Below are positions 11,988-60,493 of a stretch of 64,000 bases of DNA, piece by piece (position 1 is the stretch's first letter; every line of letters starts with the position of its first letter). The position numbers were made by a program, and so were the translations under genes. This stretch comes from Escherichia coli (GTDB lineage: Bacteria > Pseudomonadota > Gammaproteobacteria > Enterobacterales > Enterobacteriaceae): the NCBI RefSeq assembly GCF_030013205.1, contig NZ_CP122648.1. The stretch is one strand, 5' to 3'. The notes under the pieces were generated by a model. The model was not told where the DNA came from, did no database searches, and saw nothing but the letters and a program-made list of their open reading frames with translations.

Positions 11988-12203
11988 ATGTTTACTTATT
12001 ATCAGGCAGAAAATTCAACAGCAAAACCCGCTCTGGTTAATGCCATTGAGCAAGGCCTTCGGGCAGAGCACGGTGTTGTCACTGAAGATGACATTCTCAT
12101 GGAGCTGACCAAATGGGTGGAAGCTTCTGATAACGACATCCTCAGTGATATCTACCAGCAAACGATCAATTATGTGGTCAGTGGCCAGCACCCTACGCTT
12201 TAA
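11988..12203 (+). CDS. bdm: Biofilm-dependent modulation protein Bdm (71 aa)
   Basis: Internal ATG at 11988 gives MFTYYQAENSTAKPALV...; synteny next to osmC and sra. Confidence 0.85.
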   Translation: MFTYYQAENSTAKPALVNAIEQGLRAEHGVVTEDDILMELTKWVEASDNDILSDIYQQTINYVVSGQHPTL

Positions 12204-12304
12204 GGTGCTATGCTTGATCGGCAACCTAATTTAGGGGTTTAGCACGTGTTTCTTCGCTACGGCGATGTTGTCCTTAAAACTAGCAACAGGATTGAGGAGT
12301 TAAA

Positions 12305-12442
12305 ATGAAATCGAACCGTCAGGCACGTCATATTCTTGGACTGGACCATAAAATTTCTAACCAGCGCAAAATAGTTACCGAAGGTGACAAATCCAGCGTG
12401 GTAAATAACCCAACCGGCAGAAAACGCCCCGCTGAAAAGTAA
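12305..12442 (+). CDS. sra: Stationary-phase-induced ribosome-associated protein Sra (30S subunit protein S22), 45 aa
   Basis: Hand translation [52 protein letters not shown] upstream; below the ORF-track size cutoff. Confidence 0.85.
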
Positions 12443-12472
12443 TTCATAACCATCAGTCCTCAATGACGATTA

Positions 12473-12509
12473 AACACCATTGCCTGCGCAATGGTGTTTT
12501 TGTTTTTAT
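12473..12509 (+). terminator. Rho-independent terminator after sra (stem aacaccattg/caatggtgtt then T-run)
   Basis: Perfect 9-bp inverted repeat followed by TTTTTGTTTTT. Confidence 0.7.
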
Positions 12510-12598
12510 CTGCTTTATACTTGGGGCCGACGCCCTGGCGGTAAAGCAAAGACGATAAAAGCGTGCCAGGGATGGATATTCAAAAAAGAGTGAGTGAC

Positions 12599-14296
12599 AT
12601 GGAACCAAAAACAAAAAAACAGCGTTCGCTTTATATTCCTTACGCTGGCCCTGTACTGCTGGAATTTCCGTTGTTGAATAAAGGCAGCGCCTTCAGCATG
12701 GAAGAACGCCGTAACTTCAACCTGCTGGGGTTACTGCCGGAAGTGGTCGAAACCATCGAAGAACAAGCGGAACGAGCATGGATCCAGTATCAGGGATTCA
12801 AAACCGAAATCGACAAACACATCTACCTGCGTAACATCCAGGACACTAACGAAACCCTCTTCTACCGTCTGGTAAACAATCATCTTGATGAGATGATGCC
12901 TGTTATTTATACCCCAACCGTCGGCGCAGCCTGTGAGCGTTTTTCTGAGATCTACCGCCGTTCACGCGGCGTGTTTATCTCTTACCAGAACCGCCACAAT
13001 ATGGACGATATTCTGCAAAACGTGCCGAACCATAATATTAAAGTGATTGTGGTGACTGACGGCGAACGTATTCTGGGGCTTGGTGACCAGGGCATCGGCG
13101 GGATGGGCATTCCGATCGGTAAACTGTCGCTCTATACCGCTTGTGGCGGCATCAGCCCGGCGTATACCCTTCCGGTGGTGCTGGATGTCGGAACGAACAA
13201 CCAACAGCTGCTTAACGATCCGCTGTATATGGGCTGGCGTAATCCGCGTATCACTGACGACGAATACTATGAATTCGTTGATGAATTTATCCAGGCTGTG
13301 AAACAACGCTGGCCGGACGTGCTGTTGCAGTTTGAAGACTTCGCACAAAAAAATGCGATGCCGTTACTTAACCGCTATCGCAATGAAATTTGTTCTTTTA
13401 ACGATGACATTCAGGGCACCGCGGCGGTAACGGTCGGCACACTGATCGCAGCCAGCCGCGCGGCGGGTGGTCAACTGAGCGAGAAAAAAATCGTCTTCCT
13501 TGGCGCAGGTTCAGCGGGATGCGGCATTGCCGAAATGATCATCGCCCAGACCCAGCGCGAAGGATTAAGCGAGGAAGCGGCGCGGCAGAAAGTCTTTATG
13601 GTCGATCGCTTTGGCCTGCTGACGGACAAGATGCCGAACCTGCTGCCTTTCCAGACCAAACTGGTGCAGAAGCGCGAAAACCTCAGTGACTGGGATACCG
13701 ACAGCGATGTGCTGTCACTGCTGGATGTGGTGCGTAATGTAAAACCAGATATTCTGATTGGCGTCTCAGGACAGACCGGGCTGTTTACGGAAGAGATCAT
13801 CCGTGAGATGCATAAACACTGTCCGCGTCCGATCGTGATGCCGCTGTCTAACCCGACGTCACGCGTGGAAGCCACACCGCAGGACATTATCGCCTGGACT
13901 GAAGGTAACGCGCTGGTCGCCACTGGCAGTCCGTTTAATCCAGTGGTATGGAAAGATAAAATCTACCCTATCGCCCAGTGCAACAACGCCTTCATTTTCC
14001 CGGGCATCGGGCTGGGCGTTATTGCTTCCGGCGCGTCACGTATCACCGATGAGATGCTGATGTCGGCAAGTGAAACGCTTGCTCAGTATTCGCCGCTGGT
14101 CCTGAACGGCGAAGGCCTGGTACTACCGGAACTGAAAGATATTCAGAAAGTCTCCCGCGCAATTGCGTTTGCGGTTGGCAAAATGGCGCAGCAGCAAGGC
14201 GTGGCGGTGAAAACGTCTGCCGAAGCTTTGCAACAAGCCATTGATGATAATTTCTGGCACGCCGAATACCGCGACTACCGCCGTACCTCCATCTAA
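12599..14296 (+). CDS. maeA: NAD-dependent malic enzyme MaeA (565 aa)
   Basis: ORF translation from ATG 12599 ([10 protein letters not shown]...); malic enzyme family. Confidence 0.93.
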
Positions 14297-14301
14297 GCCT
14301 G

Positions 14302-14340
14302 CGCCCGGTGGTGAAAGCTGCCGGGCAATTTTCCTCTCCC
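14302..14340 (+). terminator. Putative terminator after maeA (gcccgg...ccgggc hairpin plus T-rich tail)
   Basis: Inverted repeat and downstream T-rich tract. Confidence 0.4.
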
Positions 14341-14429
14341 TTTTTCAGATCTCATCCATACTGGGTAGTGGCGAATAAATCTCATTTGCCTCACCTGCTA
14401 TGCAGAACATCATCCGAAAAGGAGGAACT

Positions 14430-15440
14430 ATGAAGGCTGCAGTTGTTACGAAGGATCATCATGTTGACGTTACGGATAAAACACTGCGCTCACTGAAACA
14501 TGGCGAAGCCCTGCTGAAAATGGAGTGTTGTGGTGTATGTCATACCGATCTTCATGTTAAGAATGGCGATTTTGGTGACAAAACCGGCGTAATTCTGGGC
14601 CATGAAGGCATCGGTGTGGTGGCAGAAGTTGGCCCAGGTGTCACCTCATTAAAACCAGGCGATCGTGCCAGCGTGGCGTGGTTTTACGAAGGATGCGGTC
14701 ATTGCGAATACTGTAACAGTGGTAACGAAACGCTCTGCCGTTCAGTTAAAAATGCCGGATACAGCGTTGATGGAGGGATGGCGGAAGAGTGCATCGTGGT
14801 CGCCGATTACGCGGTAAAAGTGCCAGATGGTCTGGACTCGGCGGCGGCCAGCAGCATTACCTGTGCGGGGGTCACCACCTACAAAGCCGTTAAGCTGTCA
14901 AAAATTCGTCCAGGGCAGTGGATTGCTATCTACGGTCTTGGCGGTCTGGGTAACCTCGCCCTGCAATACGCGAAGAATGTCTTTAACGCCAAAGTGATCG
15001 CCATTGATGTCAATGATGAGCAGTTAAAACTGGCAACCGAAATGGGCGCAGATTTAGCGATTAACTCACGCACCGAAGACGCCGCCAAAATTGTGCAGGA
15101 GAAAACTAGTGGCGCTCACGCTGCGGTGGTAACAGCGGTAGCTAAAGCTGCGTTTAACTCGGCAGTTGATGCTGTCCGTGCAGGTGGGCGTGTTGTGGCA
15201 GTCGGTCTGCCGCCGGAGTCTATGAGCCTGGATATCCCACGCCTTGTGCTGGATGGCATTGAAGTGGTCGGTTCTCTGGTCGGCACGCGCCAGGATCTAA
15301 CCGAAGCCTTCCAGTTTGCCGCCGAAGGCAAAGTGGTGCCGAAAGTCGCCCTGCGTCCGTTAGCGGACATCAACACCATCTTTACCGAGATGGAAGAAGG
15401 CAAAATCCGTGGCCGTATGGTGATTGATTTCCGCCGCTAA
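14430..15440 (+). CDS. adhP: Zn-dependent alcohol dehydrogenase AdhP (336 aa)
   Basis: ATG 14430 preceded by AAGGAGG RBS; GHEGIG and Zn-binding Cys motifs. Confidence 0.93.
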
Positions 15441-15556
15441 GAGGCCTTTGCTGCGACTGCCATGTTCGGGTCGCAGCATCGCACACTCTCCAACATGAAA
15501 TGGCTAAATGGATTATTGTTGCGTAGGAAGGAACGCTACTGAGAGTAAAGACACTA

Positions 15557-15841
15557 ATGAAAATGGCCAATCATCCCCGCCCGGGGGACATTATTCAGGA
15601 ATCACTGGACGAACTTAATGTCAGCCTGCGCGAGTTTGCCAGAGCAATGGAAATTGCGCCCTCAACGGCAAGCCGATTGCTGACCGGAAAAGCAGCTTTG
15701 ACACCAGAAATGGCGATTAAACTTTCCGTGGTGATCGGCAGTTCGCCGCAAATGTGGCTAAATCTGCAAAACGCCTGGAGTCTGGCAGAGGCAGAAAAAA
15801 CGGTGGATGTGTCGCGATTACGCCGTCTGGTTACGCAATAA
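15557..15841 (+). CDS. yddM: HigA-like XRE-family antitoxin/DNA-binding protein YddM (94 aa), apparently without a partner toxin
   Basis: ORF translation with HTH; no toxin-sized ORF in the 117 bp upstream or downstream. Confidence 0.8.
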
Positions 15842-15873
15842 AAAAAATGGCGCTTCTTAAAGCGCCATTTTCA
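15841..15873. terminator. Bidirectional intrinsic terminator between convergent yddM and fdnI
   Basis: Stem aatggcgct/agcgccatt flanked by A-run and T-run. Confidence 0.7.
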
Positions 15874-15892
15874 GCTTAAAGTTCAAAAGAGA

Positions 15893-16546
15893 TTATATCC
15901 CTTCTTCACTCTCTTTTTTCGCTTCTGCCTTCTCGATTTCACGATACCAGCGCGGATGGTGTTTCTTCGCCCAGCGACGGCTCACCTTCCCTTCGATCAT
16001 CCCTTTAATCGATCCTTTCACCCAGAAAGCCATATACATATGGATCAGGATGGCGTGGATCAGGATGATACCCGCAGCCGCATGGATCAGCAGGCTATAA
16101 CGGACAACCTGTATCGGGAAGTACTGCGCAAAGTACGGACGCCAGATAATCACCCCGGTCACCAGCAGCACGAAAATCATGCTCATGATTGACCAGAACA
16201 TCATCTTTTGCCCGGCGTTGTACTTACCGACATCCGCCACTTTGTGCTCATTGCCTTTTAATACTTCGACAATGTTCAACAGCCACGGAATATCTTTCTT
16301 ATCCGGGATGTTGTGATGCACAAAACGCACAAACATAAACATCAGCGCGACGAAAATCGCAATGCCGAAGAACGGGTGCAAAATGCGTCCCATCTGCGGC
16401 GTACCGAAGGTTTGCGTCAGCCATTGCAGCGTCGGGAAGAAGAACGAAATCCCGGACAGCGCCACCAGGAAGAAGCAAATCACCACGGTCCAGTGACAGG
16501 CGCGATCAATAAATTTGGTGCGCACAATCATTTTCGACTTACTCAT
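15893..16546 (-). CDS. fdnI: Formate dehydrogenase-N cytochrome b556 gamma subunit FdnI (217 aa)
   Basis: ORF translation from [12 protein letters not shown]...; 4-TM heme b protein. Confidence 0.9.
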
Positions 16547-17423
16547 GATGATCCTCCTCGTCATCGTCCACTTCCTTATTCGGGCCAATACCGATGTAGT
16601 GGAAAATCAACCCGGCAAAAGTGGCAATAAAGCCAGCCGCTGCCAGCGGTTTCAACGCGCCTTTCCACAGGCTTACCGAGGTATCGATCTTCGGATCTTT
16701 CGGCAGACCGTGATACAGCTCCGGCTGATCGGCGTGATGCAGCACGTACATAACGTGCGTACCACCGACCCCTTCCGGGTTGTAGACGTCAGCATGTTCG
16801 TAACCACGCGCTTTCAGTTTCGCCACGCGCTGTTCCGCCAGCTCCAGCATCTCCTTCTTGGTGCCGAAGTGGATAGCCCCGGTCGGACAGGTTTTCACAC
16901 AAGCCGGTTCCTGGCCGACGCTGACGCGATCGACGCAGAGCGTGCATTTATATACCCGGTTATCCTCTTTGTTGAGGCGCGGAATATTAAACGGACACCC
17001 GGCAATGCAGTAACCACAGCCGATGCAGTTTTCCGACTGGAAATCGACAATCCCGTTAGCGTACTGAATGATTGCACCAGCAGACGGGCACGCCTTCAGG
17101 CAGCCCGGATCTTCACAGTGCATACAGCCGTCTTTACGGATCAGCCACTCCAGCTTGCCGTTCTGTTCGGTTTCGCTAAAGCGCATCACCGTCCAGGACT
17201 TGGCGCTCAGATCTGCGGGGTTATCGTAAACCCCGACGCAGTGCCCCACTTCATCACGGATGTCGTTCCACTCCGAACACGCCACCTGACAGGCTTTACA
17301 GCCGATACAGGTGGAAACGTCGATAAGTTTTGCGACTTCTGCTTTGTAATCACGCACCTGAGAAGGCGGCGTGATGGAGTTAGTTGCGGACCTTTTGATA
17401 ATGTCCTGCGTTTCCATAGCCAT
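16539..17423 (-). CDS. fdnH: Formate dehydrogenase-N iron-sulfur beta subunit FdnH (294 aa)
   Basis: Four CxxCxxCxxxCP ferredoxin motifs, C-terminal TM helix. Confidence 0.93.
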
Positions 17424-17435
17424 CTGTTCGCCCCC

Positions 17436-20400
17436 TTACGCCTTCTCGATGTTGACTAAGAACGCTTTATATTCCGGCGTTTGCGAGTTTGCATCACCGA
17501 CATTCGGCGTCAGAGTGTTAGCGATATAACCTTTACGCGCGACACCCTCAAAGCCCCAGTGGATTGGAATACCCACCGTTTCAACCTGCTGACCGTTTAC
17601 ATTCAGCGGTTTCAGACGGCGCGTTACCACCGCCACCGCGCGGATAAAGCCACGCTTGCTTGAGACAGTGACACGATCGCCATTATTAATGCCTTTCGCC
17701 GCCGCCAGCGTTTCGCTGATTTCCACAAACTGTTCCGGCTGAGCAATTGCGTTGAGCAACGCGTGCTTGGTCCAGGTGTGGAAGTGCTCGGTCAGACGAT
17801 AGGTCGTACCCACATACGGGAACTGCTCTTTTTTACCCATCCGCAGCGCGTCTTGTTCATACAGACGAACGACCGGGTTAGACACCACGTTCGGATGCAG
17901 CGGGTTAGTGCCCAGCGGCGTTTCAATTGGCTCGTAGTGTTCCGGGAACGGACCTTCCGCCATTTTGTTGATGGCAAACAGGCGTCCCATCCCTTCCGGC
18001 TGCATGATAAACGGCCCGGTTGGCGTACCCGGCGCGGCATTGCCGAAGTCCGGAATATCGTTACCCGTCCACTTGCTGCCGTTCCACTGGATCAGCATCC
18101 GTTTCGGATCCCACGGTTTACCGCTGATATCCGCCGAAGCACGGTTGTAGAGTACGCGACGGTTGAGCGGCCACGCCCAGGCCCATCCCAGCGTATTCCC
18201 CAGACCGGACGGGTCGGAGTTATCGCGGTTAGCCATCTGGTTGCCCTGCTCTGTCCAGCTACCGGTGTAGATCCAGCAAGACGATGCGGTTGTACCGTCA
18301 TCACGCAGATGCGCAAAGCTACTCAGCAACTGACCTTTCTTCGCAATCAGCACGCCATTAGCATCATAGAGATCTTCCAGCGCATAGCCGTTATTCTCTT
18401 TCGCCACTTCGTCAGACTGCGGTTCGTGCGGCTGCTTGTAGTTCCAGCTCATCTTCATCAGCGGTTCTACGCCTTTACCACCTTCGGCCTGGTACAGCTC
18501 GCGCAGATGATGGTAGATACCCGCCAGAATTTCGCCGTCGTTACGCGCTTCGCCCGGCGCATCCTGACCTTTCCAGTGCCACTGCAACCAGCGACCGGAG
18601 TTAGCGATAGAACCATCTTCTTCAGCAAAGCAGGTCGAAGGCAGACGGAATACCTCAGTCTGAATAGACGCCGGATCGACATCGTTCGACTCGCCGTGGT
18701 TCTGCCAGAAGGTAGAAGTTTCAGTCACCAGCGGATCGATAACCACCATGTACTTCAGCTTGCTCAGGCAGCTCACCACTTTGTTTTTGTCCGGGAAGGA
18801 CGCAACCGGGTTAAAGCCCTGGCAGAAATAACCGGTGACTTTGCCTTCATCCATCATGTTGAAATACTTGATGACGTCGTAGGTCTGGTCCCACTTAGGC
18901 AGCCAGTCGTAGCCCCAGTTGTTCTCTTTCTGCGCGGCATCGCCGTAGAAAGATTTCATCAGGCTAACGAAGAACTTCGGATAGTTGCTCCAGTAGTTCA
19001 CCTGATCAGCCAGCGTCGCTTTCGGCGTGTTCGCTTCCAGATACGACTGCAAATCAACCTGTTTTTCTGACGGCAGCGTCAGATAACCTGGCAGGCTGGT
19101 AGAGAGCAGGCCTAAGTCAGTCAGGCCCTGAATGTTGGAGTGACCACGCAATGCGTTCACGCCGCCACCAGCCATACCCATGTTACCGAGCAGCAATTGG
19201 ATCATCGCCATGGTGCGGATGTTCTGCGCACCCACGGTGTGCTGCGTCCAGCCCAGCGCGTACAGGAAGGTGGTGGTGCGATCCGGCGCGCTGGTGGAGG
19301 CCAGCACTTCACACACTTTCAGGAAGTCGGCTTTTGGCGTACCGCAGATGTTTTCTACTACATCCGGCGTGTAGCGGGAAACGTGCTCTTTCAGCAGGTT
19401 CCACACACAGCGCGGATGAGTCAGTGTTTCATCGCGTTTCGCATAGCCGTTTTCATCGAACTGATAGTTCCAGGACGATTTATCGTACTGGCGTTTTTCA
19501 GCGTCGTAGCCGCTGAACAGACCGTCTTCGAAAGCAAAATCATCACGCACCAGCAGGCTGGCATTGGTGTAATGCTTAACGTATTCGGCATTGATTTTGT
19601 TGTTTTCGATCAGGTAGCGCAAAACGCCAGACAGGAACGTAATGTCCGTACCGGAACGAATAGGTGCGTAAATATCCGCTACAGAAGCGGTACGCGTAAA
19701 ACGGGGATCGACAACGATCAAGGTTGCATCGTTGTTGTTTTTCGCTTCCATCGCCCAGCGGAAACCGACGGGATGCGCTTCAGCAGCGTTACCGCCCATC
19801 ACCATCACGACGTTAGCGTTTTTGATATCCACCCAGTGGTTGGTCATCGCACCGCGACCAAATGTTGGAGCAAGACTTGCTACCGTTGGTCCGTGTCAGA
19901 CGCGCGCCTGGTTGTCTACCGCCAGCATCCCGAGGGAGCGGGCAAATTTCTGGGTCAGCATCCCGGTTTCGTTGCTGGCACCGGAGGCACACAGCATACC
20001 GGTAGAAAGCCAACGGTTTACCGTTACGCCCTGCTCGTTCTTTTCAATAAAGTTAGCGTCACGGTCAGCTTTCATCAGCTTCGCAATACGGGAGAATGCT
20101 TCTTCCCAGCTAATGCGCTGCCATTTGTCAGAACCTGGCGCACGATATTCCGGGTAGCGCAGACGGTTTTCGCTGTTGACGTAATCCAGCAAACCGGCCC
20201 CTTTCGGGCACAGCGCACCACGGCTTACCGGATGATCCGGGTCACCTTCAATGTGATAAATCGCTTCTCTGGCGTTTTTCGCGCCATCACCCAGGCTATA
20301 CATCAATAGCCCGCAACCTACGGAACAGTATGTGCAGGTGTTACGGATCTCTTTAGCGCGTAATAATTTGTAGTTTCGCGCCTGAGCCAGTGCTTGCTTT

Positions 20401-59465: not shown

Positions 59466-59749
59466 TACCGTTGTCTCTCTTCCAGGTTTACTCCTGATAG
59501 AAAGTCATCGGCACTTGACGGTAATTTCTTACGACCAAAAACCTCTTTGCGTCACATTTTTACAACAATTATGGCAGAGAAGAATAATGCCATTGGAATG
59601 AAGAGAGTAACGAATGATTAAACTGGCTAAACCGAATGACGAAAAATTCTGGAAAACAGCACGCAATTTCGTGAAGTGATTATTTTCGTCCCTAAGGAAA
59701 CCTCATAGGATGCCTGCGGGTGCCTGAGACTTTCTGTTTTCAGGCTAAC

Positions 59750-59805
59750 CGGGAATCAGAAAGACGAAGGCCCCGACCGATATTTCTATCAACCGAGGCC
59801 AACGA

Positions 59806-59815
<10 letters not shown>
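59750..59815 (-). ncRNA. sokB: Probable SokB antisense RNA region of the hokB/mokB/sokB type I TA locus (coordinates approximate)
   Basis: Inferred from the hok/sok architecture (antisense overlapping the mok start); not directly delimited. Confidence 0.3.
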
Positions 59816-60013
<198 letters not shown>

Positions 60014-60428: not shown

Positions 60429-60493
60429 CTTCCGATGTAGACCCGTATTCTTCGCCTGTACCACGGGTCGGTTTTAGTACAGGCGTTTTCTTT
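60429..60493 (+). ncRNA. rydC: Hfq-dependent small RNA RydC (about 65 nt) ending in an intrinsic terminator
   Basis: Sequence cttccgatgtagacccgtattcttcgcctgtaccacgggtcggttttagtacaggcgttttcttt recognised from memory as RydC; terminator hairpin cctgtac/gtacagg plus T-run; convergent with cybB. Confidence 0.6.

Follow-up and report, generated by a model that had tools for sequence, protein, structure and literature searches.

The HigB-HigA pair of the Proteus vulgaris plasmid Rts1 (PDB 4MCT/4MCX) is encoded toxin first. In type II systems, antitoxin autorepression usually relies on an operator that overlaps the -10 element. Losing the antitoxin before the toxin is lethal according to established toxin-antitoxin logic, so that loss of the toxin while the antitoxin stays is the expected order of events. 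Intact antitoxins that derive from canonical pairs and stand without a toxin have been described as solo antitoxins of the Klebsiella pneumoniae complex (PMC7354431). Records already exist for the Escherichia coli gene yddM as such, for its family and structure, and for the toxin partner that it has in uropathogenic strains. A review names the PDB entries 2ICP and 2ICT 'YddM from E. coli CFT073' (PMC3968373), and K-12 yddM (b1477) is listed as a putative DNA-binding regulator or HigA-family antitoxin.

Here, we examined the adhP-yddM-fdnI locus of E. coli in the window, i.e., the whole 64-kb stretch of DNA that was analyzed. The locus comprises the following features.

14430 to 15440, plus strand: adhP (alcohol dehydrogenase), upstream neighbor and left edge of the former higBA locus
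15449 to 15478, plus strand: computed stem-loop with a 10-bp stem, just 3' of adhP
15516 to 15523, plus strand: TTGTTGCG box, conserved motif in the upstream part of the ancestral higBA control region, kept in the window
15527 to 15534, plus strand: single GAAGGAAC copy, scar of a 29-bp deletion
15535 to 15551, plus strand: 17-nt leader segment GCTACTGAGAGTAAAGA, standing where the ribosome-binding site and coding region of the toxin would be
15552 to 15559, plus strand: CACTAATG, equal to the last toxin codon (His92) and TAA stop, overlapping the yddM ATG, of the toxin-bearing allele L010
15557 to 15841, plus strand: yddM, intact HigA-family antitoxin gene, 94 aa, XRE helix-turn-helix
15843 to 15872, no strand assigned: hairpin terminator common to the convergent yddM and fdnI, with a terminator-like site called on the minus strand
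15893 to 16546, minus strand: fdnI (formate dehydrogenase-N gamma subunit), convergent and downstream of yddM

adhP is annotated in the 100%-identical record NZ_CP028192.1 and in every strain compared, and fdnI, the right edge of the higBA locus, is conserved across genera. A 901-bp query (15200-16100) was 100% identical to E. coli CFSAN018748 and found a match in 5,413 of the 5,426 complete E. coli genomes. The stem-loop at 15449-15478 is probably the terminator stem of adhP. It is followed by ATCGCACAC, without a U-tract, in the toxin-less allele of the window and by CTGTTTTGCG in toxin-bearing alleles; a consensus scan called no plus-strand terminator at this position.

On the other side of yddM, 51 bp (15842-15892) with a single hairpin terminator separate the gene from fdnI. 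The length of this spacer differs by strain. The window carries the terminator hairpin only, UTI89 and NCCP13907 carry one REP-containing unit (~178 bp; L001:1289-1516) and K-12 carries two such units in tandem, with a copy of the terminator hairpin at the boundary of each one (L003:971-1376); the hairpin at 15843-15872 borders the variable REP-containing insert in other strains. Elsewhere in the window, Rfam models scored above their gathering scores for the sok antitoxin RNA (59718-59869, plus strand, 113.8 bits), which implies a hok/sok type I toxin-antitoxin locus, and for the sRNA RydC (60429-60492, plus strand, 92.5 bits). A SECIS_3 selenocysteine insertion element (19843-19901, minus strand, 84.3 bits) lies at the in-frame UGA of fdnG, which is why the fdnG reading frame seemingly begins only at 19847 in the program-made list.

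A preliminary description of this DNA had identified yddM as a HigA/VapI-type XRE-HTH gene, preceded by a gap of 117 bp and lacking any adjacent toxin-sized open reading frame. The family assignment was borne out. YddM reached 93.7 bits against the NCBIfam equivalog TIGR02607 'HigA family addiction module antitoxin' (cutoff 47.7), covering model positions 1-80 of 81, and 39.1 bits against Pfam HTH_3 (cutoff 23). It is 100% identical (94/94 residues) to 2ICP/2ICT, entered as 'antitoxin HigA', and so shares the fold of a HigA of solved structure; the next-best structural matches were the Proteus vulgaris HigA 4MCX (E = 1.3e-18), then other HigA entries. All sequence criteria therefore indicate a member of the HigA family. 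YddM presumably binds and neutralizes a HigB toxin, as judged from orthologues encoded in an operon with an overlapping HigB gene.

The upstream gap exists as well, at a slightly different length: since the adhP stop codon TAA occupies 15438-15440, the spacer runs from 15441 to 15556 and measures 116 bp. To search it for a toxin, a HigB profile was built from 22 orthologous toxins. The whole 64-kb window was translated in six frames, and each stop-to-stop piece was scanned with this profile while every HMMER filter was switched off. The best match had E = 1.8 and nothing was found near 15441-15556. The preliminary description had proposed tblastn with a HigB-type toxin against the spacer and its flanks; using UTI89 HigB against 12001-19000, this search returned no match at E <= 1e-3. 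An Rfam search at the locus yielded no family at gathering score, the sub-threshold matches falling on the terminator hairpin only. Four small open reading frames lie in or across the spacer, none of which has a Pfam match.

15462 to 15542, plus strand: 26 aa, in the spacer
15508 to 15618, plus strand: 36 aa, crossing the spacer
15382 to 15570, minus strand: 62 aa, crossing the spacer
in or across the spacer, minus strand: 39 aa

With neither a family match nor a frame kept across alleles, these were discarded as toxin candidates. The claim that no toxin-sized reading frame adjoins yddM therefore stands on both sides of the gene, including the 51 bp downstream.

A different picture emerged in other strains and species. 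In the B2-type strain UTI89, a 279-nt gene annotated as a RelE/ParE-family toxin lies between adhP and yddM (L001:726-1004); its TGA stop overlaps the yddM ATG and its product has 92 aa. The protein scored 63 bits against Pfam PF05015 (HigB-like_toxin), and the closest relative of solved structure was 4MCT_B (E = 1.2e-31), the Proteus vulgaris endoribonuclease HigB from Rts1. Aligning the two proteins showed conservation of the C-terminal YEDYH and of the LHPL-GDR segments, in which catalytic residues of Rts1 HigB lie. When one genome per species was scanned, HigB genes ending exactly at the yddM start were found in E. albertii, cryptic Escherichia lineages and more than 10 Citrobacter species, as well as in Cedecea, Buttiauxella, Pluralibacter and other Enterobacteriaceae. 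fdnI follows downstream in most of these loci and adhP precedes several of them. This overlap of HigB and yddM at the equivalent chromosomal position in many relatives indicates that the full higB-higA pair at the adhP-fdnI position is ancestral and the toxin-less state derived. Individual Citrobacter genomes have departed from it, too: in Citrobacter sp. FP75 the toxin is internally deleted and in C. portucalensis A60 it is frameshifted, both with an intact antitoxin gene.

yddM is thus an orphan antitoxin from a degraded toxin-antitoxin pair, with an intact reading frame, no toxin nearby and the full pair in relatives. Of the three readings offered in the preliminary description, the orphan antitoxin agrees with the intact gene for a 92-aa HigB that lies directly upstream, its stop codon overlapping the yddM start, in B2-type E. 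coli and E. albertii as well as in Citrobacter and further genera. The partner of a decayed toxin was correct as to the lost partner and incorrect as to decay in place: the toxin was removed essentially whole, so that the search for a remnant came out negative even though the lost-partner reading is right. These two readings coincide here. The third, a plain regulator that was never an antitoxin, is excluded by synteny.

The toxin-bearing loci further revealed a conserved control region upstream of the toxin. In at least 7 genera it reads GTTGCG, ~6 nt, GGAACA-N10-TGTTCC, 5 nt and GA(A/G)GGAAC. GTTGCG is invariant or nearly so in 20 aligned loci from at least 7 genera, with flanks that are not conserved. 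The TTGTTGCG box of the window is possibly the -35 region, and the palindrome GGAACA-N10-TGTTCC, present in toxin-bearing and K-12-type alleles, is the presumed HigA operator, which would overlap the -10 element. A scan for sigma-70 consensus promoters with a 9-of-12 threshold found no site in the window, K-12 or UTI89 alleles, and the assignment of promoter and operator is therefore drawn from conservation.

K-12-type toxin-less alleles keep the control region entire, followed by a 17-nt segment and then CACTAATG with yddM. They carry the arrangement GAAGGAAC-AATAATGATAGTGTTCCCAGT-GAAGGAAC, and the window has the two 8-bp direct repeats collapsed to one, with 29 bp less. This 29-bp deletion removes the palindrome, which at up to 2 mismatches is absent throughout the 64-kb window. 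Both the toxin and the presumed operator were tested for and both are absent; the window holds no HigBA toxin-antitoxin module. Strain 98222, whose yddM differs from that of the window by one synonymous change, still has the palindrome, which makes the 29-bp deletion young relative to toxin loss. Five other sampled genomes with the deletion have adhP 3' ends with 0 to 15 differences from the window over 381 positions, and yddM is intact in 5/5 of them.

What the toxin left behind was examined at the junction with yddM. The 17-nt segment resembles neither the 3' end of the toxin (3480/20000 shuffles score as well, P ~0.17) nor the toxin leader plus 5' end (13993/20000 shuffles, P ~0.70) significantly. 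Long-gap global alignments allowed several breakpoints that fit equally well. The only possible trace of higB is CACTAATG, which at 8 nt is too short to serve as proof. An A/G polymorphism at this site, giving TAA or TGA, segregates in toxin-bearing and toxin-less alleles alike. Divergence from toxin-bearing alleles is far greater in the 17-nt leader and in the spacer's 5' half than in the flanking genes, and the toxin-less allele is therefore no simple one-step derivative of the sampled B2 allele. By inspection of the sequence, the Shine-Dalgarno ahead of the yddM ATG is a poor match. In a study of the MazF regulon, the yddM transcript is listed as one that is cut at an ACA located 6 nt before the AUG (PMC5001579). 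The window retains this ACA at 15550-15552, within GACACTAATG; a MazF cut at this point would produce a yddM mRNA with hardly any leader.

Allele states were then counted in the 5,426 complete E. coli genomes. Of these, 5,412 have yddM, 5,408 of them at full length, and 1,331 contain higB DNA. One shared 1-nt deletion at about codon 32 (CGCCACC-ACTCGC) frameshifts higB in 545 of the 1,331 higB-positive genomes, where the gene is annotated as a pseudogene (e.g., Ec55, L002:726-1003). In functional terms YddM is therefore an orphan in many toxin-bearing E. coli as well, and an intact toxin is possible in at most ~786 genomes. Among toxin-less alleles, the K-12-type spacer accounts for ~2,747 genomes, a count inferred from genomes matching the un-inverted 29-mer. 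Another 1,060 genomes have the 11-bp core inverted between TTGTT/AACAA inverted repeats. The 29-bp deletion of the window is found in 182 of the 5,426 genomes, counted by a 42-mer seeding only on the deletion junction; an earlier 81-nt junction query had been uninformative, as separate BLAST pieces were joined.

In the inversion allele, exemplified by E. coli 2017.15.01CC, O104:H4 and L3Cip3 (L005:541-686; L050/L053), TTGTT-GCGTAGGAAGG-AACAA is flipped between the 5-bp inverted repeats to TTGTT-CCTTCCTACGC-AACAA. The flip destroys the GTTGCG box and turns the left half-site into GCAACA, a variant that is natural in Pluralibacter and Enterobacter loci. O157:H7 TR01 (L006:602-746) retains the last 47 nt of higB, encoding ...VNGDAYILDYEDYH*. 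Its spacer combines B2-like with K-12-like sequence in a mosaic, and the break falls midway through the palindrome, where the higB 3' end is attached. Among matching genomes, coverage of the toxin query fell below 80% only in TR01 and one other. We read TR01 as a further allele in which the toxin was deleted independently; it could be a recombinant or an artefact of assembly. Mobile elements occasionally hit the locus: a Tn3-family TnAs1 insertion truncates yddM in E. coli E6474 (L054:1-2683), and several strains have IS200-family elements immediately 3' of yddM, some of them together with the window-type 29-bp deletion (L055, L056, L060). Overall, the alleles point to recurrent loss of the toxin with the antitoxin kept.

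The coding sequence of yddM shows another pattern. Compared to the window, the gene has 5 synonymous differences in K-12, 8 in UTI89 and 12 in E. albertii, with 0 non-synonymous differences in each case. Across nine toxin-less alleles, 10 of the 13 variable sites are synonymous and 3 are non-synonymous (dN/dS ~0.10; binomial P = 1e-4 against neutrality), and 6/9 alleles encode a protein identical to E. albertii YddM. These values indicate that purifying selection continues to act on YddM where the toxin is missing. Part of the synonymous variation could have arisen before the toxin disappeared or have been transferred by recombination, and would then weaken the argument for selection after the loss.

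We consider it highly probable that yddM is the surviving antitoxin half of an ancestral Rts1-type higB-higA operon, from which the toxin was deleted and, later in the sub-lineage of the window, the palindrome was lost. This chromosomal operon of the Rts1 HigBA type occupied the position between adhP and fdnI. Along the branch that gave rise to most non-B2 E. coli, it lost the toxin coding region essentially whole, with at most a His-stop (CAC TAA) left, and yddM now lies directly behind the old control region. A second deletion, of 29 bp between the two GAAGGAAC repeats, then took the palindrome in the sub-lineage of the window, and purifying selection has kept the YddM protein intact despite these deletions. 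In the window strain, YddM would no longer repress its own gene in cis. Expression of yddM is probably low and would come either from what promoter activity remains or from transcription reading through adhP, whose hairpin has no U-tract in this allele. Free YddM dimers would act only in trans, as a minor DNA-binding regulator, as a neutralizer of incoming HigB, or both.

Each of these roles in trans is plausible. YddM was among the candidate transcription factors tested in a K-12 ChIP-exo screen and was grouped with factors of few sites (PMC6237786), a candidate listing that weakly supports DNA-binding activity in toxin-less K-12. Genetic interactions of YddM with stress regulators have also been described (PMC9283627). 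That YddM is nothing but a plain transcription factor, merely HigA-like and never part of a toxin-antitoxin pair, nevertheless appears extremely improbable. Systems studies of E. coli K-12 do treat it as an orphan transcription factor and the HTH is the only domain that Pfam detects; against this, a HigB gene overlaps the yddM start at the equivalent chromosomal site in at least 7 genera, YddM scores as a HigA equivalog, and it is identical to the crystallized HigA of a putatively toxin-bearing strain, with synteny refuting the idea. No more credible is a cryptic or novel toxin that still adjoins yddM, for instance one of the spacer reading frames of 26, 36 (both plus strand) or 62 aa (minus strand). 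These frames do exist, but apart from their lack of Pfam matches and the silence of the HigB profile, all of them span the 29-bp indel; as 29 is not a multiple of three, the frames differ between the window and K-12-type strains.

The remaining explanations concern why yddM persists. It may be an anti-addiction or immunity gene, with orphan YddM kept to neutralize plasmid or phage HigB and thereby prevent post-segregational killing or toxin-based takeover. This is conceivable, if on balance rather unlikely. HigB homologues occur on 475 enterobacterial plasmid records, 91 of them from Escherichia, and on the E. coli phage GER2 (60.9% identity to the cognate toxin); orphan yddM appears to be under purifying selection; and reviews propose such a role for orphan antitoxins generally (PMC7354431). 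The plasmid HigBs, however, are all less than 60% identical to the cognate toxin, barring three records that resemble chromosomal DNA. Recognition between antitoxin and toxin is usually narrow, and operator loss together with weak translation signals speaks against high expression in the window strain. We regard as unlikely the related idea of a domesticated antitoxin, a near-universal core gene selected in trans for HigB immunity or stress-gene regulation, in which the 29-bp operator deletion of the window lineage and the hairpin-mediated inversion (~1,060 genomes) would be adaptive rewiring that frees YddM from autorepression rather than decay. The opposite position, that yddM has had no role since toxin loss and is a relic that has merely not decayed yet, draws on the same rearrangements: the control region was damaged independently by the 29-bp deletion (182 genomes), the inversion and the TR01 deletion, the leader has a weak Shine-Dalgarno match, and transposons or IS elements insert occasionally. 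The gene is also without a known complemented phenotype; the Keio yddM deletion was more susceptible to epetraborole in a manner that was not complementable (PMC12457515). What makes a relic improbable is the state of the gene: full length in nearly all genomes, with the bias to synonymous sites among toxin-less alleles (P = 1e-4), the E. albertii-identical protein in most of those sampled, and an intact frame in every other operator-deletion genome sampled. The surviving antitoxin half of a higB-higA operon therefore remains our preferred explanation of yddM.

As such, yddM fits a known category, the orphan antitoxin left by a degraded type II system (PMC7354431). The allele survey adds detail and no new kind of biology, and it matters little for discovery. 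yddM does provide a clean worked example of the erosion of a type II toxin-antitoxin system, in which the toxin goes first and the antitoxin persists species-wide, with the toxin lost in several independent ways, i.e., by whole-gene deletion, a shared frameshift and partial deletion. If YddM does neutralize mobile HigB or regulate host genes, the locus would be a tractable example of a domesticated antitoxin, set in the best-studied of all bacteria.

Comparison with the described systems places the locus as follows. The protein of the window equals the HigA of 2ICP/2ICT residue for residue, and gene and locus are the same as well. CFT073 is given as the source of that structure (PMC3968373), and sampled B2-type strains such as UTI89 keep the upstream HigB, whereas the window strain has lost the toxin gene together with 29 bp of the control region. 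Rts1 HigB-HigA shares the toxin-first gene order with the ancestral pair, and each half has its counterpart there, Rts1 HigB in the B2-type partner toxin with its conserved motifs and Rts1 HigA in YddM. The Rts1 pair is plasmid-borne, while the yddM locus is chromosomal and vertically inherited, and the window keeps the antitoxin only. K-12 yddM represents the same toxin-less locus with an identical protein, but retains the palindrome in a spacer of 145 bp, compared to 116 bp in the window, as well as the two REP-containing repeat units ahead of fdnI that the window does not have. With the solo antitoxins of the Klebsiella pneumoniae complex, yddM has in common an intact antitoxin without a toxin from a canonical pair (PMC7354431); it differs from them in that its ancestry is shown directly by orthologous loci and in being a near-universal core gene of E. 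coli.
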